64,000 bases of DNA from Dictyostelium discoideum (Eukaryota), in contig CM000152.2 of assembly GCA_000004695.1 (NCBI GenBank), positions 3,584,001 to 3,648,000 of the forward strand. Direction: 5' to 3'. The notes below the pieces were generated by a model that had not been told where the DNA came from, ran no database searches, and worked only from the letters and a program-made list of their open reading frames with translations. Every line of letters starts with the position of its first letter. Within the stretch, counting starts at the first letter, position 1. Position numbers and translations under genes: made by a program. This document shows, in pieces, positions 9,900 to 58,047 of this stretch.

Positions 9900-10194
9900 A
9901 AGCACGAGTATACCCAGAATCAACGGCGGCACAAACGCTTGTTCTTAATGCTTCTACAACTCTCACTCTTAATGCTTGAGATTTATATGGTGGAATTAAG
10001 CATAGTCTTACTATTTAATGGTCTATCTGCTTTAGACAACGTACACCACCAGCTGGTGATCAGTGAGCTTGTATGAGCAGACCATAGAGCAAACATCTAG
10101 TGGACACTGACCCATTATTGGCAAACAGTTGTCTGACACCAGCATCTTTTAATTCAAGACAAACATTCTTTTTTTAAATTATTAAAAAAAAAAA

Positions 10195-10233
<39 letters not shown>

Positions 10234-10360
10234 TTAATTAAATTTTCTAAAAATACATTTTATACAGTTTTATTTACCTTTAATATTTATTAAATTGAAT
10301 TTATTAATTTTTAATAAATAAATAGCTTTTATTTTGTTAATTATTATTTTTTTTTAGTTA
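9900..10360. mobile_element. Interspersed repeat fragments: a GC-richer module Y (about 10020..10150) followed by an A-tract and a terminal module Z (10230..10360). Unclassified transposable-element remnants.
   Basis: Y matches 23525..23650 at about 80% identity. Z matches 23760..23900 and 16770..16865. These positions are GC-rich islands in AT-rich DNA. Confidence 0.4.
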
Positions 10361-12559: not shown

Positions 12560-13538
12560 TGTTGTAGTGAAAAAAAAAAAAAAATTTCCCCACATCAACA
12601 ATCGGGAATTTTCACAGTAAAATACAATGTATTAAAAAAATGTCAAGCAAATAATAAAAAAAAAAAAAAAAAAAAAAAAAATTAAATAGAAAAATAAGTT
12701 TAATGTAAAGTGAATGTAAATTTTTAGTGGATTTTATCACTACGTAGCTTGACATTTTTTTTTTTTTAAATTTATTTACTTATTTATTTATTTACTTATT
12801 TATTTATTTTTTTATTTATTTTATTTATTTTAATTTATTTTTTTTTTTTTTTTTTTAATAACTCTTAAATCAAATAACCTTCAAATCGAAAAAAAATTTT
12901 AGTTGGTTATCATAGTTTAGTAAAAAAAAAAAAAAAAAAAAAAAAATTTATATCAAAGTTTATAATTTAAAAAATACAATAATGTATATAGATAATAAAA
13001 AATATACATTCCATACACACCAAATGTGTTGTGTCGTTTCATTTTTGAAAGAAAAAAATGAAAATTCCCACTATTACCACCAAACACATTGGCATTCATT
13101 TTTTTTTTATGTCAATAAATTAAATGAATACAAAAAAAACTCACACTCACCACCACACCCACTTCTATATATCAAATTTGTATTGCATTTTTATTTTGTG
13201 TCTTTTCATAATAATAACAAAACACACCAAATGTGTTGTGTCTTTTCATTTTTTAAAACAAAAAATACTATAATTGTATTTATTCTCTAGTGTCGTTTCA
13301 TTTTTGAAAGAAAAAAAGAAAACTCTCAATATTACCCCAAACAAATTGGCATACATTTTATGTCAATAAATTATATGAATACAAATTAAAAAAACTCACA
13401 CCATCTATACATCTTATTTGTATGACATTTTTATGTTGTGTCTTTTCATTTTCCAAACAAAATTCTACAACTGATTTCATTCTCTTGTATCGTTTCATTT
13501 TTTAAAAAAAATAATACATTCACAATAAATAAATAAAA

Positions 13539-13573
<35 letters not shown>

Positions 13574-13840
13574 GATCACGTTCATGTTTATTTTTGAGTG
13601 TTCTATTTATCTATACTAAATTCATGTTAAAAATAAATAAAATTAAATCGTTAAAAAATAAGAAAATTTGAATTTAATTATTCATTTTTTGTAATTGTTT
13701 TTTATATTATTTTTTCTTGCAAGGTGGAATTCCTTAAAATTGGTAAATTCTTAAAAAATGTCAAATGTAAGTATTAAGTATTTTTACTGTGAAAATTCCC
13801 AAAGTTTGTGGGGAAATTTTTTTTTTCCACTCTCTGTATT
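12560..13840. mobile_element. Non-autonomous element, about 1.28 kb, bounded by roughly 90-bp imperfect terminal inverted repeats. It carries an internal array of hairpin repeats.
   Basis: 12560..12650 is the reverse complement of 13745..13835 at about 85% identity (..aaaaatttccccaca..gggaattttcacagtaaaatac..). This TIR is related to the TIR of element 30791..31718. The interior holds three tandem about-230-bp units containing the palindrome cacaccaaatgtgttgtgtc / gacacaacacatttggtgtg. Confidence 0.5.
13005..13500. repeat. Tandem array of three units of the hairpin-repeat family (minus orientation)
   Basis: The unit is ..ccaatgtgtttggtggtaatagtgag..ttcaaaaatgaaacgacac..aaaaaatgaaaagacacaacacatttggtgtg. 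The same family is at 16495..16660, 19296..19330, 21215..21250 and 28420..29130. Confidence 0.7.
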
Positions 13841-16494: not shown

Positions 16495-16660
16495 ATTATC
16501 ATTAAAAAACAAAATATGCCAATGTGTTTGGTGGTAATAATGAGATTTTTCTTTTTTTTTCTTTCAAAAATGAACCGACACGATAGAATGAATTCAATTT
16601 TAGTATTTTTTTCCTTCAAAATTGAAAAGACACAACACATTTGGTGTGTTTTTTATTTTT
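16495..16660. repeat. Solo copy of the hairpin-repeat unit
   Basis: About 85% identical to the units at 28425..28600. Confidence 0.6.
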
Positions 16661-17582
16661 TTTATAATTTTTTTTTTTATTAAATTAAGAGAGTTGTTAA
16701 ATAATAATTATAATAATAAAAATAATTTTCAAAACAATTAAAATAAAGAATATATTACATCATCCAACAGAAAATACATTTTATACAATTTAATTTACCT
16801 TTAATATTTATTAAATTGAATTTATAAATTTTAAATAAATAAATAACTTTTATTTTTGTTAATTATTTTTTTTTTTTTTATAAAAGGTTGTTATTAAAAA
16901 ATTTTTTGTTTGGTTTTTTTTTTTTTTTTTAAATTTAAAAAAAGAATGTTAACTTATAGATCACTTTGCTAATGCCAGATAGTAATGAAATTAAACCATA
17001 GAAACTATTAAAATATTTTAGTGGTGAATTTTTTTATATTGCCTTGAATCAAGAGATTCTTGCTGCCTATGGCTGTTTGCCTATTTTTTCGTGTGCGACC
17101 ATTTGGTAAACTTGACATTTTAGGCTGCACCATGGTGATCGGCGACCACCACATACAAAGACTTAATTGAAAAAAAAAATTAAAATTTTATTTTTTAAAT
17201 TAGGCTCGTGACCAAATAAAAAACGCTTCAAACATACAACGAAATAAAATAAAATAAAATAAAATAAATAAAAAAATTATTTGTAATAATATTTTAAAAA
17301 ATAAATATTAATTTTAAAATTAATCAATTATTCTTAAACTATTATTTTATATAAATAAATCATTATTACCTTATTTAATTAAATAATATAAACAATTATT
17401 TTATTATTTTAATTTTCTATTAAATAAATTTGTTTTTTTATTTTTGTTTTATTTTTTCTTCATCTACAAGAATCATATTCTATATGTTAATGATTATTGA
17501 CTGTATTGTTGCGCATATGGTGATTTTTTTTATCTTTTTTTTTTTTTCTTTTTAAATAATAATTTAATACAACTTTGTATTC

Positions 17583-18075: not shown

Positions 18076-19666
18076 TTTTTGAAAATAAAAAAACAAAATT
18101 AGTAAAAATAATTAATTTATTTGTTCATTCATTTATTTTATTTATTTATTAATTTAATTTTTTTTTTTTTTTTTATTTTTATTTTTTTTTAAAAAAAAAA
18201 AAACAACCTACATTCATATGATATGGTGAACTTTTTACTTGTTTTACTATTTTGGTTGACCATATCCCCTGAATTATTTTGATTGGACTAAAAAAAAAAA
18301 ATAAAAAAAAAAAATAAAAAATTGTGAATGATAAATATTAAATATATTATTTTTTTTTTTTTTTTTTTTTAAATAAATAATAATTTAATACAATGTGGTA
18401 ACAATTGTGAATAAAAAAATAATAATTAATTCATTTTATGGTCAAACATCAAAAAATAAAAAATAAAAAAAGATCTGGCCAATTTTTTTTTTTTTTAACG
18501 TTGCGATAACTTTTTTTTTTTTTGATTTTTTTTTTTTTTTTTTTTTTTGATTTTTTTTTTTTTGATTTTTTTTTTTGCTTTTTATAAACTTTTTTTTTTT
18601 TCTCAACGTTTTCTGTATAAATTTTTTAAAAAATTGTTGGTGCAGTTAATTAATAAATAAAAAAATATAAAAAAAAAAAATTTTAGATTATTAATTGTTT
18701 TCTTTTTTTATTTTTATTTATTTTTTTTTTTAAAAAGCTCATTATTTTCTTTAAAAGGATTATAATGAGAATTGGATGGGTGGGAGGGGGTTATATTACC
18801 TATTTTTTAAGAAGATTTACTTTGTTATACCTTTTCTTTCAATGGTAACTATTGATAAAAAAATAAAATTATAATAATAAAATTAAAATTCAAATATTAA
18901 TTTTTTTTTTTTTTTTAATTTTAAAGATTAGTTTATGGTAGAGAAAACTTCCTAAAGAGCAACAAAGGTTCTGATTGGATAAACTTCAATTTACGGCAAT
19001 GGTACTTTAAAGTTTCCAAAAAGATTGTCCCAAAAGGTACGGCAATGGTGCTATTGGAACAAAAATATAACCAGCAACAATAAAAAAAAAATAAAAAATA
19101 AAAAAAAAAATAAAAAAAACTATTTCTTCTTGTGTTTGTTTTATTTATTCCTTTATTACTATACATTTTTTTTATATACCTCTTTGTTTTATTATCTTTT
19201 TTATCATTAAATTAGTGATATAAATCAAATAATAGTTTTATTTTTTTTTTTTTTTTGTTTTTTTTTTTATTATTTTTTTTTTTTTTTTATTACTATACAC
19301 ACCAAATGTGTTGTGTCTTTTCATTTTTCAAACCAACAAATACTGCATTTGCAATAATCTTTTTAATTATGTTGTGTTTATTTTTTTACATTACCAAAAA
19401 TTACTATTTCACCCAAACAGTGGTTGGTAGTGTTGTTATTTTTTTTACTTATATTTTTTTATTTTTTTATTTTTTTAATTTTTTTTTTTATGTGAGAATT
19501 AAATTAAAATACAAAAAAAAAATAAGAATAAAACCATTTTTTGTATATTTTTTCTATTTTCCCACGAAATCACAGAATTGTTGACCCCCAATGAGTGGTT
19601 TTTGTTTTTATAATTTTTTATTTTTTTTTATTTTTTTCAATTCATACACACAAAATAAAATCATAA

Positions 19667-21492: not shown

Positions 21493-21550
21493 TAAATAAA
21501 TAATACAGAAATTAAGTAAATAAAATTCGGATGGAACCTACATAAATTTA

Positions 21551-22033
21551 TTATTGTCCTTGATTTGGTTGGTTTGGTTGGTTTGCTGCTGCTGCTGCTG
21601 CTGCATCATCCTCAGCGAATAACTGGGCGATGAGATTCATGTCAACTAAATCGTGAGTATTAACTGGTGTTAAAACTGCATAGTTAATATCAATATGGGG
21701 ATATTGTTTTTGTGTATATAATATGGCCTCGTCAACTTCAGCTCTGATATCCCAACCTGCTTGATCAGATCTTGCGAAAAAAATAGCAGCGGTGTCACCC
21801 ATTTTTGGGTACCATATTGGGTTTCTATTGAGTCTTGCTTTAAATCTTTTTCTGGCATTTGTTATGTAATTAGGTGAGGCGTAATCATAATTGGCACCGT
21901 TATTGGTAGCAGCCAAGGCAAGTACAGTTTGTGGTATTTGATCTAAATCTCTAATTTTTATTGCTTTTGTGACAATTACTTTTGAACAATACACACCATT
22001 GTCATTATATAAACTTGGGTTGATTGACGACAT
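21551..22033 (-). CDS. Hypothetical 160-aa protein, copy 1 of a duplicated gene
   Basis: Intact ATG-to-stop ORF with coding-like composition. It is nearly identical to 30124..30606 (2 aa differences) and ends in poly-Ala and NQP repeats. Confidence 0.65.
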   Translation of the reverse strand: MSSINPSLYNDNGVYCSKVIVTKAIKIRDLDQIPQTVLALAATNNGANYDYASPNYITNARKRFKARLNRNPIWYPKMGDTAAIFFARSDQAGWDIRAEVDEAILYTQKQYPHIDINYAVLTPVNTHDLVDMNLIAQLFAEDDAAAAAAANQPNQPNQGQ

Positions 22034-22608
22034 TCTTGAAAAAATAAAAAAATTAAAAAAAAAAAATTTTTTTTGAAATGATTTTTATCTAAAATATTTC
22101 GAGATTTTATAAAAAAAATTAAACTTTTTTTGATTTTGCAGCGTCACCACTACTATGTAAAATATTTACAATGCATTTACAATGCAATTACATTGTGATT
22201 TGTCTTTAAGTAAATTAACGTATCCCATATTAATTTTATCTATAATCAGAGAGATATAAAACTAATTTTTTTTTTTTTTTATATCTAAAAACTAGGAAAA
22301 AATATTAAAAAATAAAAATAAAAAAATCTTTTTAATTAAAAATATTTATTCGGTCATTCATTTTTCTTTTTTTTTTTTAAAAAAAAAACAATAAATAAAT
22401 AAAGGAAAAAAAGAAATTTATGAAACTTAAAAAAAAAAAGTAAAAAAGTTTTTTTTGGAATTTATTTTTTTTTTTTTTTTATATTTATAATTCAACAATA
22501 AACAAAATCAACAACATAATGTCTAAATGATCAAATAATTCTCTGGGTGAAGATATGGTCAACCAAAATATAAAACAAGTAAAAAAAGTTCAATATAGAT
22601 GTAAGTTG

Positions 22609-22639
<31 letters not shown>

Positions 22640-22828
22640 GAAAAAATAAAAACAAATAAAAAATAAATAAAAATAAAAAATAAATAAAATAAAAAAAAAA
22701 AAAATAAATAAATAAAATAAATAAATAAATAAATAAATAAATAAATTAAAAAATTAATGTATGAATTAGTAAATAAATAAATTAATATTTTTACTAATTT
22801 TTTTTTATTTATTTTCAAATTAGAGAAT

Positions 22829-23455
22829 GATCATTGAAGAGTTATCCAATTTAATAAAGAGAAATTTATTATGGTCACAATCGGTGTTTGAAATGTATTG
22901 AAACCATAGAAAGGGTGTACCCGCTTGAAATATGACAACTAATACTCGAAATGTACCATTGAAAAGAGCTATCGCTATTGTATTTGAAAATCGTGAAACC
23001 ACTGGCGATGATTTAATTGGCAAAGAATGTGTACCACTAGAAATGGTTTAATCTATTCGATCAATAGAAATTGCTTTACATGTTCTCGCTGATTATAAAC
23101 ATGACCTATGATGAATAATCGATCACTGCTGAATGTGACCCAATTAAGAAAAGTCAAGCATAAGAGAATATGACCCATTCTTAATCTCTGGTTCTATGGT
23201 AATCAAAGGTTTTGGTACTATGTTAGTCACAGCCGTTGGTGAAATTATAATAATTTCATTCAATAGTAAACAAGTTAGCCAAAATCAACAAAAATGTTAA
23301 ATTATGTTACACTTTGAATTATACAAATTCATTATTAGTTTTAGCAAGTGAAAACTCCATTCGAGACAAAACAAGATAATATTGGTGTTGTTATTATTGG
23401 TATTACAGAGAAACTAGAAATCCAGCGATAGACTTGTTCAAAATCTTTTTTAAGC
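22829..23455. mobile_element. Repeat X copy (reverse orientation relative to 17583..18075), inserted in the ARF upstream region
   Basis: This segment is absent from the paralogous sequence at 42285, which retains only the two X termini. Confidence 0.5.
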
Positions 23456-23524
23456 CAATACAACGCTCAATTAAATTATTATTTTTTAAAATCACATATT
23501 CACAACTATACAGTCAATAATCAA

Positions 23525-23900
23525 ATGGTCGTACACCACCAGCTGGTGGTCAGTGACCTAATATGAGAAGACCGCAGTCTACAAATATCTAGCGAACACT
23601 GACCCATTATTGTCAAACGGCCGTCGGACACCAGCCTTTTAATTCATTACCACCTGGCATTGGCAAAAGTGATCTATAAGTTAAAAATTTTTAACTTATA
23701 GATCTATAAGTTAAAAATTTTTTTTAAATTGTTTAAAAAAAAAATAAAAAAAAAAATTAATTAAATTTTCTAAAATACATTTTATACAGTTTTATTTACT
23801 GTTGTAGGGAATTTTTTTTGAAATTTCGCTTTCTAAACGGCAGTGAATTTTTACACTAAAATACACTGTTTATACCTTTATTTATTAAATTGAATTAATA
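23525..23900. mobile_element. Repeat modules Y and Z carrying a solo 78-bp TIR (23789..23866) of the TTAA-type element. A 34-bp perfect palindrome lies at 23659..23692.
   Basis: Y matches 10020..10150 and Z matches 10230..10360. The solo TIR is identical in sequence to 30791..30866. Confidence 0.45.
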
Positions 23901-24518
23901 AATGTATAACTTTTTTTTATTTTTTTTAATAAATTTTTTTTTTTTTTTTTTTTTTTTATATGGATTGATGTATAAACAAAATAATTCAAAATTGTAAAAT
24001 TAATTATTAAAATTAAAAATAAAAATAATAAAAAATAATAAAAATTAATAATTAAAATTAAAAATAAAAATAATAAAAATATGAATTTTATTACTAAATC
24101 TTTTTTTTTTTTTTTTTTTAATTTTTATTCCCATTTTTCCTTTTTTTTTTTTTTTTTTTAGATTTACTGTACTTTACTTTATATTTGTCGTCAATGCATC
24201 ACTTTGAAAATTTAAAATACATAACAAAAAAAAAAAAAAAATTAAACAGTGCAGGAATTGATTTTTCAATTAAAAAAAAAGAAAAATCTCACTATTTCCA
24301 TGATTATTGTTTCTATTAATACTATAACCCCATTATTATTACCATTTATATTAATATTATTATAAATTGTTTTTTTTTTTTTTGTTCACCCCCAATAAAT
24401 TTATCACAAAATATGTCCTCATTCATTAGTTATTAAAGAAACTAAAAATAAAATAAAACAATAAATATAATTAAAATAACAAAATAAAATAAAATAAAAT
24501 AAAATAAAATAAAATAAA

Positions 24519-24614
24519 ATGTTATTAGAAATTCTCAACAGTTTAGCATCATTTTTTAGTAAGATATTCTCATTATTTGAAGGTAAAAAAGATATAAGAA
24601 AATTATTGATTGGA
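24519..24614 (+). pseudogene. ARF 5' fragment (first about 30 codons), fused to the antisense 3' part of a tgrC-like pseudogene
   Basis: [32 protein letters not shown] matches the ARF N-terminus, including the conserved (aaaat)n leader. The junction falls at a shared TTGGA. Confidence 0.7.
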
Positions 24615-26770
24615 ATTTCTGAAATCATTGGTTTTATACGTCAATGTTGTACTTGGTCCCTGGACGAACTCCTGTAGTATTTTTATTATTTGATTTTACA
24701 TTAACTTTGAATTCTTTGTCACTTGTCAATAAATTCTTACCAGAAACTGTGATATGACCTCCACAAGTAAGTGTTTTATTATCTTTATTTGTTATATGAT
24801 AAATGACAGGAGGTAATGTTAAATAAAAGAATGAATCCATATAATTACCATCTACAGTAATATTAATTGGGCCATTTTTATATGAATCCAATATTTTAAT
24901 AGTTAATTGATGATCTTTTAATTCTAGAATTTCTGATGAAATATCACTACCATTTAAATAAACTTTAATTAATGATGTTGAATTACCAAAATTATTACCA
25001 TGTAATTCAATATTAGTTCCATCATCTGAAATTGTACGATTCTCAACTTCAGGTGGTGCATATGAGAATTGATCACTGACTGTCTCTGAGTTTAATTTGA
25101 ATATAAATTGTTTATTAATACCAGTGCCATATGGTGTTGGACATGTTGTTTTATAGTAACTAGAATTTGATGATGGTATTGAACATAGTGAGGCTGATGA
25201 TGAATCACCAACAGTAATACTTGGTGCTGGTGAACTAATTGTACAATCCATATAAAATATTTCAATATTTAATATTCCATTTGATACTGTTGGTCTATTG
25301 GTTACATTTACTGATAATGATGCAGAAATTGAAAGTGTGTTTGCGGTAATATTAGAACGAGTGAAATTACTATTAAATGATCTACATCTTAAATGAGGTA
25401 ATTCAAATGTTAAACTCTTTTCATCAGATGATACATTAAATTTGCTAATGTTTGTATTATTAATTCCATCACCTATAATTGAATGGATGATTCGTTATTT
25501 GTACCAAGATTTGTACCAATTAATGTAACGATACCATTTGAATATGACCCACTTGATAATGTTGGAATATTATATGTAAATAATACACCATTAGGACTTG
25601 TTGAATCACAACCACCGAAATTAACTTTAACCGGTAAGTTTTTACCACCCAGTTCATTTTTTTCTTATTTACATTCCAATTCAGTTGGTGTTGATATAAT
25701 AAATGTACATTGTTTATCACCAATTATAATTGATGGTGTCAAAGATGAATTTAAAGTCGAAGATAGTTTTTCACCTTTAATTGTTACAATACCATCTAAA
25801 CGATTTGATAATGATGATATTGATGTTATAATTGCTGGGAAACAATGATTATAATTCTTTTCAATTGAGACACCATTTACGGTAATACTAACAGACATTG
25901 GGCCAGGCGCAACTCTATTAATGTTACTCACTTGAATTTGTGTATGATTTACTGAAATAATAAAATTTAGTTGAGTAATACCATCAAAATAAACCGTAAC
26001 CAACTTTTTATTTGTAAAGAAGTTATCACCATTAATTGTTATTATTTGTTTCAATGAGTCAAAAACGGTACTTGATATTTTAGGTGATACGTATGAAAAT
26101 GGTACTTTAAATACACCAGTTTCATCATAGTACAACCTAAAAGTTCCAGATCCTGGTGGAAATATTACAGTAATATTATTTAGAGTAGATCCATCAGAGA
26201 AATTACCTTTAACAACCAAAGGTTTAGAAGTATCAATGGAATTTAGAAGGAAATTAGGACCACCAAATAATCTTAAATATGAGCCAGTAATGACCCTATC
26301 TTCACCAGATGTTTTGGTTTTTTACTATATTTCAAATTGGATGCTTTTGGATAATATATTAAAGGCGAAACATCAAATGTACAATCCTCAACAGTATTTG
26401 ATATATCTCTAGCACATATCTTACTGTCTATACTACCCCATAATCTTGAGAATGGTTCATCTTAATGGAATAAACAATGCTCTCTCCATCAACTAGGGTA
26501 CAATTGAAATAATTTGGTGCCATTTCAGTTCTGGGTTCTTTTTCGTTTTTATACAAAATTAAACGGGTAGAATATGGGAGATTACTATTAAAAATAAATG
26601 TAAATGATTTATCATCATATATTACATCTAATAAAAAAAATTAATTACATAAACAAATTATTATAAATAATTAAAAATTTAATGATAATACCTATTGGTG
26701 ATGGACGATACATTGAATATCCTGATTTAAAGAACAAAAATAAAATCAGTAATATTATTTTCTGTTCCAT
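24615..26770 (-). pseudogene. tgrC-like pseudogene: 3' truncated with multiple frameshifts. The exon-1 signal peptide and intron are retained.
   Basis: Fragments 24634..25251 and 25665..26219 align to the intact paralogue 46672..49406. Exon 1 ([27 protein letters not shown] plus gtaagtat) lies at about 26696..26770. Confidence 0.8.
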
Positions 26771-26926
26771 TTTTATCAATAATTTTTTTTATTTTGAACT
26801 TGGCTTTGTCAATAATTTTTATAAAAGAAAATTAAAAAAGAGAAATTTAATTATTTTAGGAAATTTTAATTTTAATTAAATAAATAGATAAAAAAAGATA
26901 AAAAAAAATTAATAAATGTAGAAAAA

Positions 26927-26961
<35 letters not shown>

Positions 26962-27194
26962 ATAAATATATAAATTAAAAAAACAAAATAAAATAAAAAA
27001 ATAAATAATAATAATGAAAAAAAACCATAAAATTCTAAAAAGAGGCTATCTGGTGAATGAGTTTGAGTGTGGTGTTTCATTTATATGAAAAGGGAGTGGT
27101 TTTTTTTGTTGAATGGGGTATTTTTTTTTATGTTAAACCCCTTTTTCTAAAAATAAAAAATGTTTTTTTATGTAAATTTTTTATTAGGAAGTGT

Positions 27195-28120: not shown

Positions 28121-28419
28121 TGGTTAAATAAATAATAAAAAAAAAAAAAAAAATATAATCCAGGTTTAATTAATTTTAAAACAAATTATTTATTCCATCC
28201 ATTTTTTTTATTATTTTATTAGTATAGATAAATAGAACACTCAAAAAATTAACAAAATGATATAAAAAATAAAAAGAAATGAAGGTGACCACTTTATTTT
28301 TAAATTTTTAAATTTTTTTTTTATTTTTTTTTTTTTATATATATTTAATTATATTTCTATAAATATATATATGAAAAATATAAATAAAATGATTTTATTT
28401 ATTTATTGAAGTATAAAAA

Positions 28420-29130
28420 AATATATGAGAATGTGTTTGGTGGTAATAGTGAGGGTTTTCTTTTTTTTTCTTTCAAAAATAAAACGACACTAGAGAATGA
28501 ATACAATTTTAGTATTTTTTGTTTTAAAAAATGAAAAGACACAGCACATTTGGTGTGTATTGGGTGTGTGTTTTTGTTATTGTTATGAAAAGACAAACAT
28601 AAAAATGCCATACAAATTTGTTTTTAGAAGTGGGTGTGGTGGTAAGTGGGTTTTTTATATGTATTTATATTCATATAATTTATTGATTATAAAAAAAATA
28701 TTCCAATGTGTTTAGTGGTAATAGTGGGAGTTTTCTTTTTTTTCTTTCAAAAATGAAACGACACAAGAGAGTGGGTTTAGTTGTGCAATTTTGTTTAAAA
28801 AATGAAAAGACAAAAAATAAAAATTACATACAAATTAGATGTATAGAAGTGGGTGTGGCGGTAAGTGTGAGTTTTTTATTTGTATTTATAATTTATTGAT
28901 ATAAAAAAAATATATGATTATTTGTTTGGTGGTAATAGTGAGGATTTTCTTTTTTTTTGTTACAAAAATGAAACGACACTAGAGAATGAATACAATTTTA
29001 GTATTTATTATTTTAAAAAATGAAAAGACACAACACATTTAGTGTTTGTGGAATGTGGGTTTTTTTATTATCTGTATTTTTTTTCTTTCAAAAAAGAAAC
29101 GACACTACACATTTGTTGTATGTATTTTAT
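28420..29130. repeat. Tandem array of about 3.5 units, period about 250 bp, of the hairpin-repeat family (plus orientation)
   Basis: The motif ..gtgtttggtggtaatagtgag..caaaaatgaaacgacac..aaaaaatgaaaagacacaacacatttggtgtg recurs at about 28425, 28705 and 28925. A partial unit lies at 29090..29130. Confidence 0.65.
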
Positions 29131-29875: not shown

Positions 29876-30123
29876 TAATGTAAATTTTATTTATTTTTTT
29901 TCTATTTTTTTATAATTATTTTAGTAATTGTTTATTTTAATAGTAATATTCAAATTTGATGAATAACAAAAAAAGACACATAATGTTTTACTCTTTAGAA
30001 AGGGAATTTTTATTTTTATTTTTTTTATTTTTATTTTTTTTTTATATTTAATTTTAAGGTTTTATAAATTCACAATGAGACCTAGTATTATTATATAAGA
30101 GTTAAATTAAATAAACTAATTTA

Positions 30124-30606
30124 TTATTGTCCTTGATTTGGTTGGTTTGGTTGGTTTGCTGCTGCTGCTGCTGCTGCATCATCCTCAGCGAATAACTGGG
30201 CGATGAGATTCATGTCAACTAAATCGTGAGTATTAACTGGTGTTAAAACTGCATAGTTAATATCAATATGGGGATATTGTTTTTGTGTATATAATATGGC
30301 CTCGTCAACTTCAGCTCTGATATCCCAACCTGCTTGATCAGATCTTGCGAAAAAAATAGCAGCGGTGTCACCCATTTTTGGGTACCATATTGGGTTTCTA
30401 TTGAGTCTTGCTTTAAATCTTTTTCTGGCATTTGTTATGTAATTAGGTGAGGCGTAATCATAATTGGCACCGTTATTGGTAGCAGCCAAGGCAAGTATAG
30501 TTTGTGGTATTTGATCTAAATCTCTAATTTTTATTGCTTTTGTGACAATTACTTTTGAACAATACTCACCATTGTCATTATATAAACTTGGGTTGATTGA
30601 CGACAT
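30124..30606 (-). CDS. Hypothetical 160-aa protein, copy 2 of the duplicated gene
   Basis: Identical to 21551..22033 except V14E and V36I. The 3' flank carries a small inversion relative to copy 1. Confidence 0.65.
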   Translation of the reverse strand: MSSINPSLYNDNGEYCSKVIVTKAIKIRDLDQIPQTILALAATNNGANYDYASPNYITNARKRFKARLNRNPIWYPKMGDTAAIFFARSDQAGWDIRAEVDEAILYTQKQYPHIDINYAVLTPVNTHDLVDMNLIAQLFAEDDAAAAAAANQPNQPNQGQ

Positions 30607-30790
30607 TCTTGAAAAAATAAAAAAATTAAAAAAAAAAATTTTTTTTGAAATGATTTTTATCTAAAATATCTCGAGATTTTATAAAAAAAATTAAACTTTT
30701 TTTGATTTTGCAGCGTCACCACTACTATGTAAAATATTTACAATGCATTTACAATGCAATTACATTGTGATTTGTCTTTAAGTAAATTAA

Positions 30791-31009
30791 TGTTGTAGGG
30801 AATTTTTTTTGAAATTTCGCTTTCTAAACGGCAGTGAATTTTTACACTAAAATACACTGTTTATACGTAGTGTAAAAATTCACTAAAATTTTTTTTTTTT
30901 TTTTATAAATTAAAAACAATTTATTTAATCAAAATAATAAAAAAACTAATTTTAAACAATTATTTGTTGTTTAAGAATTAAATAACAATTTAAATTGTTA
31001 GATTTGAGC

Positions 31010-31047
<38 letters not shown>

Positions 31048-31334
31048 TTTTTTTTTTATTTTTTATTTTTCTTTTTTTTTTATTTTTCATTTTTTTTTTA
31101 TTTTTTATTTTTTTTTTTTATTTTTTTTTTTTCATTTTTTTTTTTATGTAACGAAGACACAAAAATAAGTTAATATTAAATAAGTGAACAAAGACACTAA
31201 TTATAGTTGACCCGCATTTAAATAATAATAATAATAATAATAATTCTATTAACTCGAGTTTATAATTATAAATAATATAAATACTAAAAATAATTATATA
31301 AACAATAATGAATACCATAATTAAAATATAAACC

Positions 31335-31379
<45 letters not shown>

Positions 31380-31470
31380 ATTTTTTTCAATTTTTTTTTA
31401 TCGAACAATTTTATTTTATTCCCCAAAAATGAAAACAATCGATAAAAAAAAAAATTGAAAAAAATAATTG

Positions 31471-31502
<32 letters not shown>

Positions 31503-31718
31503 GCAAACTAAATTTTTTTGTTATAAAAAATAAATAACAAGCAAATAACTGAATAAAATTGGTTTTTTATTTTTCTGATTAAATAAATTGTTTTTTAATT
31601 TAATTATAAAAAAAAAAAAAATTTAGTGAATTTTTACACCATGCATAAACAGCGTATTTTAGTGTAAAAATTCACTGCCGTTTAGAAAGCGAAATTTCAA
31701 AAAAAATTCCCCACAACA
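30791..31718. mobile_element. Non-autonomous DNA-transposon-like element, 928 bp, with 76-bp terminal inverted repeats and a TTAA target-site duplication. No ORF.
   Basis: TIR-L 30791..30866 is tgttgtagggaatttttttt..aatacactgtttatac and TIR-R 31643..31718 is its reverse complement (2 mismatches). Flanking TTAA lies at 30787..30790 and 31719..31722. The uninterrupted paralogous site taaatTAACgtatccc is at 22209..22222. Confidence 0.75.
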
Positions 31719-31901
31719 TTAACGTATCCCATATTAATTTTATCTATAATCAGAGAGATATAAAACTATATTTCCCTAATTATAGATCAAACAAATAAGA
31801 ATCAATAATCTAATTCACAAATTCAATTTTAAAAAAAGGATAAAAAAATCAGGCAATAATAATTATGGGATGTGTAAAACATTCACAACAATTATATTTA
31901 T

Positions 31902-40289: not shown

Positions 40290-40480
40290 ATTTTTAACAC
40301 TTATTTATAAAAACAAATTCGCAGTGAGTTTTCACTCTAAAATGCACTGTTTAAATACCCTAGATTTTTTTTTTTTATTTTTTATAATTATAAAACAATC
40401 TATTTAACCAAAAAAAAACTAATTTTAAATAGTCAAAATTAAATAATAATTTTCTTTTAAGTTTGGCGCCAAATTTTTTT
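40290..40480. mobile_element. Diverged left-end fragment of the TTAA/TIR element family
   Basis: ..ttcgcagtgagttttcactctaaaatgcactgtttaaatac.. plus internal sequence match 30830..31010. Confidence 0.4.
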
Positions 40481-40483
40481 TTT

Positions 40484-40735
40484 TTACATGGTACAGTGTG
40501 ATACACCATCACCTGAATCCATAACGATACCAGTGGTACGACCAGATTCATATAATGATAATACATCTTGAATGGCGACATACATAGCTCGAGTGGTGAA
40601 AGTTTCAAACATAATTTGGGTCATCTTTTCTCTATTTGCTTTTGGATTTAATGGTGCTTCAGTTAAGAGAACTGGACGCTCTTCTGGTACAACACGTAAT
40701 TCGTTGTAGAAAGTATGATTTAATAACAATAACAA
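40484..40735 (-). pseudogene. Actin gene fragment (residues about 88-170 only)
   Basis: [75 protein letters not shown] is nearly identical to conserved actin. There is no start codon and no remainder of the gene. Confidence 0.85.
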
Positions 40736-40905: not shown

Positions 40906-42047
40906 CGATTGGTGTTATAATCTGAAGTTTATTAAATTTCTATTTGAATCCATAACCTATTCTTATTTTGTAACTGATTCAGGTTTGGAACATTATTAAA
41001 ATAGAGTTTGTGAAGTTAAATAATTTATCGCTGAAGTTGTAGTTCAAATCTGACAACCAAAATTTATATTTTTTTTTAATTTTTTATTAGTTTTTTAACA
41101 TCGATTTAATTTTATTTATTTTTAATATGAATTTAATATAGATAAATAGACCATGATTAGATTGATTCGTTTTATGGTTGTCAAATTTTTTTATTTTGTT
41201 AACGTTGTGATACTTTTTTTTTTTTTTTTTAGGTTTCTTGTTCTTTTTATAAATTTTTTTTTATTTATTTCAATTTCCAGAATTTTATTTTTTCAACAAA
41301 AATAGGATTCACTCCAATAAAATATATTTTTTAAAAATATATATTTCTTAATTCTTACAATTAATAAGTTGAAAAAAAAATTAAAAATTAAAAATTAAAT
41401 CCAAATAAAAACTATTTTTAGAAATAAAAAAAATAAAAATAAAAATTAAATAATTAAGATTAAAAATTAAAAACACAAAAAAAATTTATACTTTTTTTAA
41501 TTTTTCTTTTTTTAATTATTTTAAATAATTTAAAAAATAATTTTGAATGTGACCAACACTTGGTCCCGTTGATGTTGCTGTTTTTGCTATTAATTTTGAT
41601 TTATTTTTTTTATTTTTTTTAAAGTTTATTTAAAATTTCCTCATTTATGTTTATCACTTTTATTTTTTTTTTTTACATATAATTTTTTTTTTCAAGAGAA
41701 GTAATTTATTTTTTTTTTTATATCTAAAAACTAGGAAAAAATATTAAAAAATAAAAATAAAAAAATCTTTTTAATTAAAAATATTTATTCGGTCATTCAT
41801 TTTTCTTTTTTTTTTTTAAAAAAAAAACAATAAATAAATAAAGGAAAAAAAGAAATTTATAAAACTTAAAAAAAAAAAGTAAAAAAGTTTTTTTTGGAAT
41901 TTATTTTTTTTTTTTTATATTTATAATTCAACAACAATAATCAAAATCAACAACATAATGTCTAAATGATCAAATAATTCTCTGGGTGAAGATATGGTCA
42001 ACCAAAATATAAAACAAGTAAAAAAAGTTCAATATAGATGTAAGTTG

Positions 42048-42078
<31 letters not shown>

Positions 42079-42749
42079 GAAAAAATAAAAACAAATAAAA
42101 AATAAATAAAAATAAAAAATAAATAAAATAAAAAAAAAATAAATAAATAAATAAAATAAATAAATAAATAAATAAATAAATAAATTAAAAAATTAATGTA
42201 TGAATTAGTAAATAAATAAATTAATATTTTTACTAATTTTTTTTTTTTTTATTTTCAAATTAGAGAATGATCATTTGGTATTACAGAGAAACTAGAAATC
42301 CAGCGATAGACTTGTTCAAAATCTTTTTTAAGCCAATACAACGCTCAATTAAATTATTATTTTTTAAAATCACATATTCACAACTATACAGTGTCAATAA
42401 TCAAAGCGCTTTGAAAATTTAAAGTACATAACAAAAAAAAAAAAAAAAATTAAACAGTGCAGGAATTGATTTTTCAATTAAATGAAATTAAAAAAAGAAA
42501 AATCTCACTATTTCCACGATTATTGTTTCTATTAATACTATAACCTCATTATTATTATTACCATTTATATTAATATTATTATAATTATTTTTATTATTTT
42601 TTTTTTTTTGTTCACCCCCAATAAATTTATCACAAAATATGTCCTCATTCATTAGTTATTAAAGAAACTAAAAATAAAATAAAACAATAAATATAATTAT
42701 AATAACAAAATAAAATAAAATAAAATAAAATAAAATAAAATAAAATAAA

Positions 42750-43245
42750 ATGTTATTAGAAATTCTCAACAGTTTAGTATCATTTTTTAGTAAGATATTC
42801 TCATTATTTGAAGGTAAAAAAGATATAAGAATAATAATGATTGGACTTGACCGTGTAGGTAATCCAATACTTTTATATAAATTAAAAGTAGGAGATGTTG
42901 TTTCAACCATTCCATCCATTGGATTCAATGTTGAACTATTGAATATAAAAATTTAAATGATAGTTTAGGATGTAGGTGGCCAGTATTAAATTGGCACATT
43001 ACAGAAACACTATAATCATGGTTCAAATGAAATCATCTTTGTAGTGGATAGAACTAATTGTGAAAGAATTAATCAAGTTAATGAAGAAGTTGATAATCTT
43101 TAATTCAAGATGAATTAAAAGGTAAATTCTTTAAATTTAAATTCAATTAAAGATAGAAAATGGTATATTCAACCATGTAGTGCCATTAAATCAAATGATA
43201 TATATGAAGGATTTGATTGGATTGCAAATTCACTCAATAATGAAT
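42750..43245 (+). pseudogene. ARF-family GTPase pseudogene (internal stops and an internal deletion)
   Basis: Aligns to 2248..2814. GKST is lost, stop codons follow NIKI, and a central block is deleted. The 5' leader (aaaat)n is conserved. Confidence 0.8.
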
Positions 43246-46671: not shown

Positions 46672-49406
46672 TTAAAATTTTTTACCTATAAATTTTTTCA
46701 CACGAAAAGGTATTTTAAAGTAATAGGCAAGAGCACCGATAGCAAGAGCACCACCAACACTACCAATTGTAGAACCTATTATTAAACCATTTGATGGTTT
46801 GGATGATTTAGTTTCAACATCTCTTTGACTAACGTTTGGTGATGGAGATAATTTAATTTCTTCAATTGTGACATTATATTGAAATGATGTTGAGTTAAAT
46901 AGGAGATATAATACTCCTGATGTATTTTTCACACTTGAACCGGAATGGCATGATAAACAATCAGTATTACTATTTGTAATATTAGTTTCACTTGAATCAC
47001 TATCATCAAGTATTTCATTTGGTGATAAACTACATTCTAAATTACATGAAAGAGGAACAGTTTCTGATGAAACTGTTAAGCTTGCATTGAGAATATCTGT
47101 AAAACTATAACCACGAATTATTGCTAAAATACCTTTTTCAATTTTATTTTCAATGGTTGGAATTTCTGAAATCATTGGTTTTATATAGGTCAATGTTGTA
47201 CTTGGTCCTGAACGAACTCCAATGAATGTTGTAACAAAGAGTGAACTCTCTCTACTTTCATCTCTAACTATTAATATCTTTTCATCTTGAGCAAATACTG
47301 TGGTATTTTTATTATTTGATTTTACATTAACTTTGAATTCTTTGTCACTTGTCAATAAATTCTTACCAGAAACTGTGATAAGACCTCCACAAGCAAGTGT
47401 TTTATTATCTTTATTTGTTATACGATAAATGACAGGAGGTAATGTTAAATAAAATAATGAATCCATATAATTACCATCTACAGTAATATTAATTGGGCCA
47501 TTTTCATATGAATCCAATATTTTAATAGTTAATTGATGATCTTCTAATTCTTGAATTTCTGATGAAATGTCACTACCATTTAAATAAACTTTAATTAATG
47601 ATGTTGAATTACCAAAATTATTACCGTGTAATTCAATATTAGTTCCATCATCAGAAATTGTACGATTCTCAACTTCTGGTGGTGCATATGAGAATTGATC
47701 ACTGACTGTCTCTGAGTTTAATTTGAATATAAATTGTTTATTAATACCAGTACCGTATGGTGTTGGACATGTTGTTTCATAGTAACTAGAATTTGATGAT
47801 GGTATTGAACATGGTGAGGCTGATGATGAATCACCAACAGTAATACTTGGTGCTGATGAACTAATTGTACAATCCATATAATATATTTCAATATTTAATA
47901 TTCCATTTGATACTGTTGGTCTATTAATTACATTTACTGATAATGATGCTGAAATTGAAAGTGTTTTTGCGGTAATACCAGAACGAGTGAAATTAATATT
48001 AAATGATCTACATCTTAAATGAGGTAATTCAAATGTTACACTCTTTTCATCAGATGATGATACATTAAATTGGCTAATGTTTGTATTTTTAATTCCATCA
48101 CCATATAATTGAATGGATGATTCGTTATTTGTACCAAGATTTGTACCAATTAATGTAACGATACCATTAGAATATGATCCACTTGATAATGTCGGAATAT
48201 TATATGTAAATGATACACCATTAGGACTTGTTGAATCACAACCACCGAAATTAACGTTAACTGGTAAGTTTTTACCACCCAATTCATTTGCATCCAATTT
48301 ACATTCCAATTCAGTTGTTGTTGATTTAATAAATTTACATACTTTATCACCAATTGTAATTGATGGTGTCAATGATGAATTTAAAGTTGAAGATAATTTT
48401 TCACCTTTAATTGTAACAATACCATCTAAATGATTTGATACTGATGATATTGATGTTATTATTGCTGGGAAACAATGAATATAATTCTTTTCTATTGAGA
48501 CCTCATCTACGGTAATATTAACAGACATTGGACCGGGATCAACTCTATTATAGTTATTCACTTGAATTTGTTTATGATTTACTGAAATGATAAAATTGGG
48601 TTGGTCAATACCATCAAAAGAAACCTTAACCAAGTCTTTATCTGTAAAGAAGTTATCACCATTAATTGTTATTATTTGTTTTGATGAGTCTGAGACAGAG
48701 CTTGATATTATAGGCGATTCGTATGAAAATGGTACAGGATTATCCCCAGTTTCATCATAGTACAACCTAAATTTTCCGGATCCTGGTGGAAATGTTACAG
48801 TAATATTATTACAGTCAAAAGATGGATCAGAGAAATTACCTTTAACAACAAAAGGTTTATTTACATCAATGGAATTAATAAGGAAATTAGGACCACCAAA
48901 TAATCTTAAATATGAGCCAGTAATGACTATATCTTCACCAGATGTTTTTGGTTTTTTACTATATTTCAAATTGTATACTTTTGGATAATATACTAAACCC
49001 GAAGCATCAAATGTACAATCCTCAACAGTATTTGATTTATCTCTAACACATACCTTACTGTCTATACTACCCCATAATCTTGAGAATGGTTCATCTGAAT
49101 GGAATAAACAATGTCTCTCTCCATCAACTAGAGAACAATTGAAATAATTTGGTGCCATTTCAGTTCTGGGTTCTTTTTCGTTTTTATACAAAATTAAACG
49201 GGTAGAATATGGGAGATTACTATTAAAAATTAATGTAAATGATTTATCATCATATATTGCATCTAATAAAAAAAATTAATTACATAAACAAATTATTATA
49301 AAGAATTAAAAATTTAATGATACTTACCTATTGGTGTTGGAGGATTCATTGAATATCCTGATATAAAGAACAAAAATAAAATCAGTAATATTATTTTCTT
49401 TTCCAT
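46672..49406 (-). CDS. tgrC1: Tgr-family, tgrC-like type I membrane glycoprotein, 889 aa. Structure is join(49328..49406,46672..49262). It is the partner of the divergent tgrB-like gene.
   Basis: Exon 1 encodes [27 protein letters not shown] (GTAAGT donor). Exon 2 is an 839-aa open frame with IPT/TIG-like repeats, the [15 protein letters not shown], and the 14-aa tail [14 protein letters not shown]. The symbol is tentative. It is chosen because this is the only intact divergent B/C pair in the window, and that architecture is known for D. discoideum tgrB1/tgrC1. Confidence 0.75.
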
Positions 49407-49929: not shown

Positions 49930-52441
49930 ATGAAAGTAATATATATTTATTTGTTATTATTATTAGTTTGTAAATTTTTATTTGTTAAATCAAGTTGCTC
50001 TTTAAAAGTTGGAAAAATAGAATGTACAAAAGAATTAGAAACGTTTTTATTATATAATGAAACAGTTGTCAATGTAAAAATGGATACAAATGGAGTAAAA
50101 TATTATTTTAATGCACTCGAGTTTCCTTACAAGAATCTGTTATGCGATTTAAATATTGATATTAAATTCACACCAGAAATCCCATCATTCCCAAATATAC
50201 CTACAACAGGTGGAGACTTCGGGTTCACCTTCAACTTTCCTTGCGACTATAGGCGAAGAGTCAAACGAATAGAAATAGAAAGAACTATATTATCTCTCAG
50301 TTTTGATACAAGCAAAAATCAGTTCGTTACTTACTTGAATCCAGGGTGTGGTCCTTTCAATATTAGTAGTAGTGGGATTCAGATTTTGAGTACAACTTAT
50401 GAAACTGGTGCCATACCCAATGTACCAATTCTCGATGATGATAAAGGTATTTTAACTATTCAAGGTAGTAATCTCTACAATACATCAATTAAAATTTATT
50501 CAAATAACATTCTTAAAGACACCAACCCTAGTGGTGCACTAGATGCTTCCCATTCTTCTGTCACATTCTCCGCTGAAGAATTTTTAACCCCAAATAATTG
50601 GACAATTGAAGTCTCAATATGTGGCTCATTTTATAAGAGCTATTCCTTCCCATATTTTCCAAAGCTCGATAAAATGGAGGGGGTACTTAATGATAATGGT
50701 GGTAATATGGTATTTACTGGAAAGCATTTAAGACCAAAACACAATGTTACTGGTACTTTTGGTAATAAAACTATTGAGTGTCTCACATCCAATTCTTCAA
50801 AAAGCATAACATGTACCATTCCAAGTCGTAAAAACTATGGTTTTCTTGGTTATGATATTCCTGTAACAATTACTGTAAGTAGGATACAATATATATATTA
50901 TAAATACATATTGTTATCATATAACATTACTAATTATTTTTTAAATAATATTTTATTAATAGATTGACGGTGAATATAAATCAAATACAATTAAAATATC
51001 TTATGATCTTCCATTGATTCAAAGTGTTTCACAAAGGGGTAATTCACAGATTTTCGATGTGACCGGTGTGTATTTTTCTGGTGTTAAGAATATGACTGTA
51101 ATTACTGGTAAAAACATGAAAACTGATATTATCCAAAAGAAAACTGCAACATTGGAAGAACCTGGATTTTTTATTGAAAGTAATTATACCATTTTTATAT
51201 TCCTACCAAATAATACTCAACCTGGTTTTATGAACCTTGTTGTTGGTGACGGTGGTAGTGAAACATTTACATCTCCAAGATATAATTTCAAGATCACTCC
51301 AACTATTACTGCTGGCCAAACCTTCAACTCAACTACAAGTGGTAATGATTTAGAAATTAAAGGCATCTTTATGAGAACTGTTGATTCTGATGGTAGAGAT
51401 GTTCCACTAACAGTCAATAGTGGGTCTGGTGGTCTTGTTTGCAATCCATTAAAAGATGGTGATGGTTTATTATTCACCTGTGTTCTAGGACCTGGTTTCG
51501 GTTCAAGCCATACAATGAACGTTTACTATAATCTTATACCCATTGGATCATTTACCGTTAGCTACAATCCTCCATACCTTGGCACAAGTGAACAAGAAAA
51601 AGATGGGACCATTAAAATGAATGGTAAGGACTTAGGGGAATCTGTTAAGGATTCAATTATGACCGTTGTTTATTCTGATGGTAATACAGTAAATGGAACC
51701 GTAATTAAAAGTAGTCATACTTCTCTTATATTTAGGTATCCTATAGGCAATAGAAACACTGCAAGCTATATATTCCAACTTGGTGATCAAAAGAGTAATA
51801 AGGCAGGTCCATTCACTTTGAAACCTATTATTGAAAACACTGATCCTGCTGTACCATGTGGCGGTGGAGTGGTTACTATCAATGGTCATTACTTTTTTAA
51901 CTATACCAAAGATACCACAACTATTACCATTGGTAAAGTACCATGTAATATTTCTTCAATTAGTGAAACAACCATTGAATGTGTAATTGTACCAAATCTT
52001 AGATCTCTTTCTCCATACTACACATCTGGCACTAAACCATTAGTAATCAGTAGCTCAAATCCTGGTACTGAAAAGGTCTACCAATTGACACCTGCAGGTC
52101 TAAACTATAAGTTTGCACCACCAACCATTACAAATACATCTGCAATTGATCAAACCGCTTTAATTACTATATATGGTACATCATTTGGTGATGCAAATCT
52201 TGAAATTCTAATCAATGATAAACCATGTACACAACCTGAAATTAACATTCACACCTATTCTAGTTTAACCTGTAATGTAACCAACTATGATGAAATGAAA
52301 ATATATAACTACTCTAATACTAAATTCAATATTAGTATCTCTGTTGATGGTCAGTACTTTATTGCTGATATTTTCCAATTTAAATGTAAGTTACATACAA
52401 TCATATCATTCTCTATCTTATTATTTATTACTATTGCTGTA

Positions 52442-52479
<38 letters not shown>

Positions 52480-56962: not shown

Positions 56963-58047
56963 ATGAAAGTTTTATATATTTATATATTGTTATTGGTTTG
57001 TAAATTTTTATTTGTGAAATCAAGTTGCTCTTTAAAATATGAAAAAATAGAATGTACAAATGAATTTGAAACATTTGAATTATATAATGGTACTGTTGTC
57101 AATGTAAAAATGGATACAGTTGGAGGGAGATATTATTTTAATCCACTAAAGTTTCCTTACAAGAATTTGCTATGCGATTTAAATATTTTAATTAAATTCA
57201 CACCAGAAATCCCATCATTCCCAAATATACCCACAACAGGTGGAGAATTCGGGTTCACCTTCAACTTTCCTTGCACCTATAAGCGAACAGTCAAAGAAAT
57301 AGGAACAGAAAGAACTTTATTATCTCTCAGTTTTGATACAAGCAAAAATCAGTTCGTTACTTACTTGGATCCAGGGTGTGGTGCTTTAAATTTGTTTTTT
57401 GAAAATATCCAGATTTTGAATTCAACTTTTGAAACTGGTGCCATACCCAATGTACCAATTCTCGATGATGATAAAGGTATTTTAACTATTCAAGGTCGTA
57501 ATCTCTACAACACTTCAATTAAAATTTATTCAACTAACATTCTGAAAGACACCAACCCTATTGGTGCACTAGATACTTCCCATTCTTCTGTCACATTCTC
57601 CGCTGAAGAATTTTTAACTCCAAATAATTGGACAATTGAAGTCTCAATATGTGGCTCATTTTATAAAAGCTATTCCTACCCATATTTACCGGTGCTCATC
57701 AAAATGGAGGGGGCACTTAATGATAATGGTTGTAATATGGTATTTACTGGAAAGCATTTAAGACCAAAACACAATGTTACTGGTACTTTTGGTAATAAAA
57801 CTATTGAGTGTCTCACAACCAATTCTTCAAAAAGCATAACATGTACCATTCCAAGTCTTAAAAGTTATGGTTCTCTTGGTTATGATATTCCTGTAACAAT
57901 TACTGTAAGTAGGATACAATATATATTATAAATACATATTGTTATCATATAACCAATTACTAATTATTTTTTAAATAATATTTTATTTAGATTGATGGAG
58001 AATACAAATCAAATACAATTAAAATATCATATGATATTCCAAGGTAT
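56963..58047 (+). pseudogene. tgrB-like gene, truncated. Exon 1, intron 1 and the first 19 codons of exon 2 remain, then the match ends in a stop.
   Basis: Exon 1 at 56963..57904 is 314 codons and about 85% identical to 49930..50874. A GTAAGT intron lies at 57905..57990. After ..ISYDIP the alignment ends and a stop follows. Confidence 0.75.

Follow-up and report, generated by a model that had tools for sequence, protein, structure and literature searches.

The window analysed here is a 64,000-nucleotide stretch of Dictyostelium discoideum chromosome 3 with approximately 22% G+C, and all positions are counted from its first letter. It carries a complete 928-bp element with terminal inverted repeats (TIRs), termed element A. 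It is very probably a class II (cut-and-paste) DNA transposon that is non-autonomous and non-coding, has long inverted arms and belongs to the miniature inverted-repeat transposable element (MITE) or foldback type. This reading is based on two pairs of filled and empty insertion sites, one for element A and one for a solo end termed copy B, and on a terminus that was found three times in the window against none expected. The older relatives in the window, copy C and element D, showed that it belongs to a family and is not a one-off. Element A is a small non-autonomous TIR transposon of an ordinary kind, and the genome that carries it has been well studied. The features of element A and of its insertion site are as follows.

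30791..31718, plus strand: element A, complete 928-bp non-coding TIR/foldback-like element with ends 5'-TGTTGTAGGG...CCCCACAACA-3'
30787..30790: target-site duplication, left copy TTAA
31719..31722: target-site duplication, right copy TTAA
30791..30916, plus strand: left TIR, outer well-conserved arm; weaker similarity reaches ~31087
31593..31718, minus strand: right TIR, outer arm; weaker similarity runs inward to ~31425
30833..30884, plus strand: left subterminal hairpin with a 17-bp stem, AGTGAATTTTTACACTA / TAGTGTAAAAATTCACT
31625..31676, plus strand: right subterminal hairpin with a 17-bp stem
31088..31424, plus strand: central non-palindromic AT-rich core of 337 bp with long T runs and one (AAT)n run
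22215..22218: empty paralogous site of element A with a single TTAA, within the 720-bp V4 duplication unit 21545-22264

Filled and empty site of element A

Element A was inserted upstream of DDB_G0280543 (ORF, open reading frame, 30124-30606, minus strand, 100% identity), 184 bp from its ATG. The paralogue of this gene at 21551-22033 (minus strand) encodes the vegetative-specific protein V4 (DDB_G0280533, P14330). The V4 unit, which comprises the ORF and 230 bp upstream, was compared with 30118-30790 plus 31723-31768; over 720 bp the two differed by 3 substitutions and a single homopolymer indel (99.6% identity). The V4 copy reads ...GTAAATTAACGTATCCC... without interruption, and the DDB_G0280543 copy reads GTAAATTAA, followed by the element (TGTTGTAGGG...CCCCACAACA) and then TTAACGTATCCC. 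The filled and empty copies differed by exactly 932 bp, corresponding to the 928-bp element and 4 duplicated bases. Judging from the two copies, element A would have been inserted later than the very recent duplication of the V4 unit, or the V4 copy would have lost it by precise excision. Either history would mean that element A was mobile. The element was also present in an independent assembly (GCA_054883475.1, CM142509.1), which showed 0 mismatches and 13 indels against positions 20068-40635 of the window.

Since TTAA is a palindrome and the element has inverted ends, the site pair of element A taken alone fits a target-site duplication of 0, 2, 3, 4 or 5 bp. The 0-bp reading gives an element AATGTTG...CAACATT between TT and AA. 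The other readings give a 2-bp duplication TA, a 3-bp duplication TAA or TTA with unequal ends, and a 5-bp duplication ATTAA with unequal ends. These alternative lengths would indicate quite different superfamilies.

Copy B and the target-site duplication

The second pair of filled and empty sites was provided by copy B, whose surrounding sequence has a duplicate at ~10040-10320.

23800..23875, plus strand: copy B, 76-bp solo left end with 76/76 identity to the left end of element A, ending in the loop of the subterminal hairpin
23796-23799: host TTAC to the left of copy B
10274..10278: empty paralogous site of copy B, ...TATTTAC/CTTTA..., with the insertion point between 10277 and 10278

The empty copy at 10 kb reads ...CAGTTTTATTTAC directly followed by CTTTAATATTTATTAAATTGAATT, and the filled copy at 23.8 kb reads ...CAGTTTTATTTAC, the inserted end (TGTTGTAGGG...CTGTTTATAC) and CTTTATTTATTAAATTGAATT. 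That an unrelated site has the identical TGTTG tip fused to host DNA indicated that the family is mobile and that TGTTG is its true end. The base preceding TGTTG at copy B was a host C that is also found in the empty paralog. This excluded the symmetric 0-bp and 2-bp (TA) readings, so that a 4-bp duplication with TGTTG...CAACA ends was the only symmetric reading left. A cut-and-paste-type insertion with a 4-bp duplication, as proposed in a preliminary description of this DNA, was therefore upheld, with the length settled by the copy B pair and not by the single TTAA pair. The TTAC beside copy B also occurs in the empty copy and is therefore host-derived. Copy B had no right end and no second TTAC, and its junction showed TAC/AC microhomology.

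Among the 4-mers of the window, TTAA accounted for 1.67% (rank 14 of 256) and TTAC for 0.51%, and TTA(A/C) together made up 2.2% of positions. The chance that both of the two sites are TTA(A/C) was approximately 5e-4, so some preference of the family for TTA-type sites is likely, as judged from two sites. Strict TTAA specificity was not supported by the two target sequences.

Structure of element A

The repeat search showed inverted arms at 30787-30916 and 31593-31722 with a length of 130 nt and 92% identity, the TTAA included. Alignment of one arm against the other gave 41/42 identical bases at the tips and 92/97 in the outer arm, with 91.5% of the aligned bases identical over 297 nt. Approximately two thirds of the 928 bp consist of the two arms around the core. 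The tips are 5'-TGTTG...CAACA-3' (TG..CA). A 57-nt terminal probe matched at 30791 (plus strand), at 31718 (minus strand, 1 mismatch) and at 23800 (plus strand), while shuffled sequences were expected to give 0 matches. The subterminal hairpins had predicted DNA folding energies (dG) of -17.4 (z -5.2) on the left and -14.7 (z -3.6) on the right. As single-stranded RNA, the whole element was predicted to fold into one long hairpin with -275.5 kcal/mol (z -21.7). No credible ORF was found in element A, whose longest frame was a low-complexity one of 106 aa and whose interior is AT-rich. No tRNA was found in the element, and an Rfam scan of the whole window showed no family.

What the preliminary description had recorded for this locus was reproduced: a 928-bp TIR element at 30791-31718 with an AT-rich interior lacking an ORF, TTAA on both sides, an uninterrupted paralogous copy and a subterminal hairpin at each end. 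Its TIRs are inverted as described, and they are longer than the 76 bp that had been given. The solo TIR also exists, at 23800-23875 and not at 23789-23866.

The mobility of element A could be explained by a transposase supplied in trans, which would bind the ~40-bp tips and the subterminal palindromes and cut A/T-rich sites of the TTA(A/C) type with a stagger of 4 nt. Repair of the gaps would then produce the 4-bp duplication. Copy B may be the remnant of an internal deletion or of a gap repair after excision that was aborted within the hairpin loop, and its ends may have been rejoined on the TAC/AC microhomology.

Diverged relatives and copy number

Two further members of the family were identified in the window.

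40321..40485, plus strand: copy C, diverged fragment with 69.5% identity to positions 41-235 of element A, without the second hairpin arm
12560..~13837, plus strand: element D, older relative with left end TGTTGTAGTG... and ~75-bp TIRs related to element A

Copy C stops at the first T run of element A and is followed immediately by a diverged minus-strand fragment that translation confirmed as actin. The diverged end next to an actin fragment had been noticed before at 40290..40480; the association with actin held and the matching part was 40321-40485. The 40 bp upstream of copy C were considered as a diverged tip and rejected, as strain ACTFIR has the same flank without the element part and the sequence is host flank. 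Copy C was also considered as a possible Pack-type element carrying a piece of actin; no right-hand partner was found for it. The actin pseudogene fragment itself (~40487-40705, minus strand) comprises ~68 codons and directly adjoins the T-run end of copy C.

The TIRs of element D, recorded previously as a related TIR element at 12560..13840, share ...TTTCCCCACA... and GGGAATTTTCACAGTAAAATAC with element A. The right tip of element D was degenerate and no duplication was recognisable there. From their divergence, the members in the window appear to form one family of different ages, with element A and copy B young and copy C and element D diverged and older. Relics related to element D were also observed at 3900-4500 of locus L002, a tgr contig of strain assembly GCA_054859385.1, beside the copy C flank. 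They comprise the sequence TTTCCCACATCAACA and a 51-bp stretch with 98% identity to positions 12675-12725 of the window. The occurrence of these relics in the tgr contig of another strain implies that old family members predate the divergence of the strains.

Outside the window, eight loci (L002-L009) with ~165 kb around tgr genes were sampled. They represent the three other strains ACTFIR, ACTFIW and ACTFIY as well as two more regions from AX4-type assemblies. Judging from this sample, the family appears to be sparse or locally concentrated. Searches for the TIR and for the hairpin pattern gave 0 matches in public genome and metagenome contig collections, which probably include little or no Dictyostelium DNA. 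A Harbinger-like DDE_Tnp_4 gene at locus L007 was rejected as a partner because it had no real TIRs and no similarity to element A. This 330-aa gene (GCA_054859385.1, L007 4463-5539) has DDE_Tnp_1/DDE_Tnp_4 domains, and the inverted repeats around it are of low complexity only. Positions 1-1785 of L007 encode a Ty3/gypsy-type pol, which lies together with the DDE gene less than 10 kb from a tgr gene.

Genomic setting

The window spans the tgrB1/tgrC1 (lagC) allorecognition region. The ORF at 46672-49191 (minus strand) showed 99% identity with LagC/TgrC1, and several other TgrO1/TIG genes were present in the window. The tgr genes and paralogues are located as follows.

46672-49266, minus strand: tgr gene or paralogue
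49930-52447, plus strand: tgr gene or paralogue
3083-5653, minus strand: tgr gene or paralogue
24673-26966, minus strand: tgr gene or paralogue
56963-57931, plus strand: tgr gene or paralogue

A partial copy of tgrC1 was observed at 24672-27160 (~2.5 kb, 91% identity). Among 5.8 billion proteins, V4/DDB_G0280543 and the neighbouring DDB_G0280661 had no homologue beyond the AX4 lineage, not even in the assemblies of other D. discoideum strains. The genes for V4, DDB_G0280543 and DDB_G0280661 (21551-22033, 30124-30606 and 33623-34225) are lineage-specific or unannotated elsewhere.

Several other repeats were observed in the window. A repeat family of ~150-250 bp, both dispersed and in tandem and with units such as ...CACCAAATGTGTTGTGTC(G/T)TTTCATTTTT..., was found at 13029-13517, 28394-29107, 16505-16668 and 19264-19344. 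The interior of element D is filled with this family, and at ~28.4-29.1 kb it occurs as an array with a GC skew of +0.27. A G+C-richer conserved block of ~110 bp with the palindrome CCACCAGCTGGTGG was present at 10040-10150 and 23530-23640. Its 10-kb copy resembles the end of a coding region, and its 23.5-kb copy belongs to a segment of ~680 bp that is inserted relative to 42405-42409. A segmental duplication with 92-98% identity joins 22260-22835 with 41699-42275, 23397-23525 with 42275-42405, and 24202-24617 with 42409-42848. It starts 46 bp past the empty TTAA site, and its copy at 22-24 kb is broken by insertions of ~560 and ~680 bp.

Alternative explanations

In one alternative, element A would not be a transposon but a palindrome formed locally or a gene for a hairpin RNA (small-RNA precursor), produced when sequence in one of the V4 unit copies underwent inverted duplication. 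The ~300-bp arms would fold into one very long hairpin, and transposon-derived hairpins are sources of microRNAs in D. discoideum (PMC4894637). This origin is nevertheless highly improbable given the exact boundaries with a 4-bp host duplication, the identical 76-bp tip at an unrelated site with its own empty paralog and the diverged relatives elsewhere in the window, and no Rfam match or known D. discoideum microRNA was found in the window. A small-RNA role would also be compatible with a transposon. The assignment to the piggyBac superfamily, whose DDD transposase inserts at TTAA and excises precisely and could have restored the V4 site, has more in its favour and was still considered improbable. 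PiggyBac elements use TTAA sites, excise precisely and have TIRs of 12-19 bp with the termini C[C/A/T][C/A/T]...G; their excision is abolished once the terminal G is lost (PMC5381638). Element A resembles piggyBac-type MITEs in the clean TTAA duplication at the intact copy, the perfect single TTAA in the paralog and the subterminal repeats typical of piggyBac ends. In addition, the TTAC of copy B is one base off TTAA, and piggyBac-like elements are known in Amoebozoa, namely in Entamoeba invadens (PMC5381638). Unlike in piggyBac, however, the termini of element A are T...A (TGTTG/CAACA) instead of C...G, and its TIRs (92/97 identical in the outer arm, ~100-300 bp with similarity to ~300 bp) are far longer. 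The duplication is TTAA/TTAA at element A, whereas the host-derived 4-mer at copy B is TTAC, so that one of the two target sites departs from TTAA (n=2). TTAA is also common in the DNA of the window and is shared with Kolobok elements, whose 4-bp TTAA duplications are accompanied by 5'-RR...YY-3' termini (PMC9587614); element A agrees with the Kolobok duplication, but its ends are TG...CA and not RR...YY. For D. discoideum there is no described piggyBac transposase, its transposases being said to resemble none that are known (PMC5633606), and E. invadens was the sole Amoebozoa entry in a survey of 157 piggyBac elements (PMC5381638). The claim of the preliminary description that the TTAA duplication is the hallmark of piggyBac-like targeting was consequently not retained. 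Two further superfamilies were tried on the same sites and rejected. A Tc1/mariner-type (Stowaway-like) element with a TA duplication needs an A-TGTTG start, and copy B has the host C there. The 3-bp TWA duplication of PIF/Harbinger-type (Tourist-like) elements fits element A only with unequal ends, and the bases preceding copy B are TAC.

With a class II transposon as the preferred reading, there is close to an even chance that element A belongs to a family already on record (thug-T, thug-S or DDT-S; Glockner et al. 2001), with only the locus being new. The repeat catalogue of D. discoideum has been described as covering all its transposable elements, and in it small thug DNA elements account for ~0.1% of the genome (PMC5633606), and element A is present in the AX4 reference lineage. 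Against a catalogued identity, thug-S and DDT-S have gene models or transcripts whereas element A has no ORF, and the family was sparse in the DNA sampled. Thug-S is an annotated and transcribed gene with an intron and carries the miRNA_can_D3 hairpin (PMC4894637, PMC12405889), and thug-S hairpins are processed into microRNAs (PMC4894637, PMC6161686). Neither the thug-S-derived microRNA pair nor the miRNA_can_D3 hairpin matched any part of the window at up to 4 mismatches, and none of the other known D. discoideum microRNAs was found there. Thug-T or another catalogued short element is a possible identity of element A. A smaller likelihood, well below that of a catalogued identity, was given to an uncatalogued D. 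discoideum foldback-like non-autonomous family with integrase-type TG...CA ends and 4-bp duplications. If this were true, a Ginger2-like transposase distinct from Tdd-4/5 would have been very recently and locally active in the tgrB1/tgrC1 region, promoters could be remodelled and long hairpin RNAs could be fed to the RNA interference machinery.

Comparison with known systems

Ginger2/TDD elements, named after Tdd-4 and Tdd-5 of D. discoideum, have TGTNR termini and TIRs of 45-297 bp (PMC2836005). The TIRs of Tdd-4 and Tdd-5 are 260 bp and 297 bp, respectively, and both elements produce 5-bp duplications, while most members of the group have 4-bp duplications, an A/T-rich target RTATAY and short non-autonomous derivatives (PMC2836005). 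Compared with this published description, element A showed TGTNR termini (TGTTG at both of its ends, at copy B and at the left end of element D; TGTNR occurs at 0.9% of window positions), a TIR length within the range (~126 bp well conserved, ~300 bp in total) and a 4-bp A/T-rich palindrome-like duplication in the same host species. Given tips of the TG...CA/TGTNR form, the length of the TIRs and a 4-bp duplication of A/T type, the most likely mobiliser is tentatively proposed to be a Ginger2/TDD-like enzyme, with an integrase-like DDE transposase in mind and not piggyBac. This candidate holds a minority of the probability, and it would not be Tdd-4/5 themselves. Beside this candidate and piggyBac, the remaining probability falls to some other enzyme. 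The transposases of D. discoideum reportedly have no significant similarity to known ones (PMC5633606).

Several observations weigh against the proposed transposon and its mobiliser. The resident Tdd-4/5 duplicate 5 bp and element A duplicates 4 bp, which makes Tdd-4/5 unlikely as the mobilising partner, and the flanks ATTAAC and TTTACC match the Ginger2 target RTATAY at 4/6 and 2/6 positions, respectively. The window yielded no transposase gene, and none was found in linkage with element A. The terminus and hairpin of element A were absent from the ~165 kb at the eight other tgr loci. There is one intact copy with two informative junction sets only, and TTAC as the duplication of copy B was inferred and not seen twice, as the right end is absent. 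Finally, the empty V4 site could equally be the product of precise excision.

The two loci provide two clean before-and-after insertion sites for a Dictyostelium DNA transposon, and they point to recent mobility inside the highly polymorphic tgrB1/tgrC1 allorecognition region, near a V4 paralogue. The expression and control of Dictyostelium DNA transposons have not been studied in detail (PMC5633606). A TTAA flank in a genome with 78% AT does not mean piggyBac, and a misassignment is corrected here. The general picture of transposon biology is unchanged.

Thug elements are short and have inverted ends. Element A is similar to them in that they are small DNA elements of the D. discoideum genome whose transposase is not understood. 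It differs from thug-S, compared by description, in having neither a gene with an intron nor the miRNA_can_D3 hairpin. Finally, element A shares with foldback-like and long-TIR MITEs a structure made up mostly of two inverted arms, the lack of an ORF, a high A/T content and a location near genes, but unlike in foldback-like MITEs its arms have no subrepeat arrays and its copy number is apparently low.

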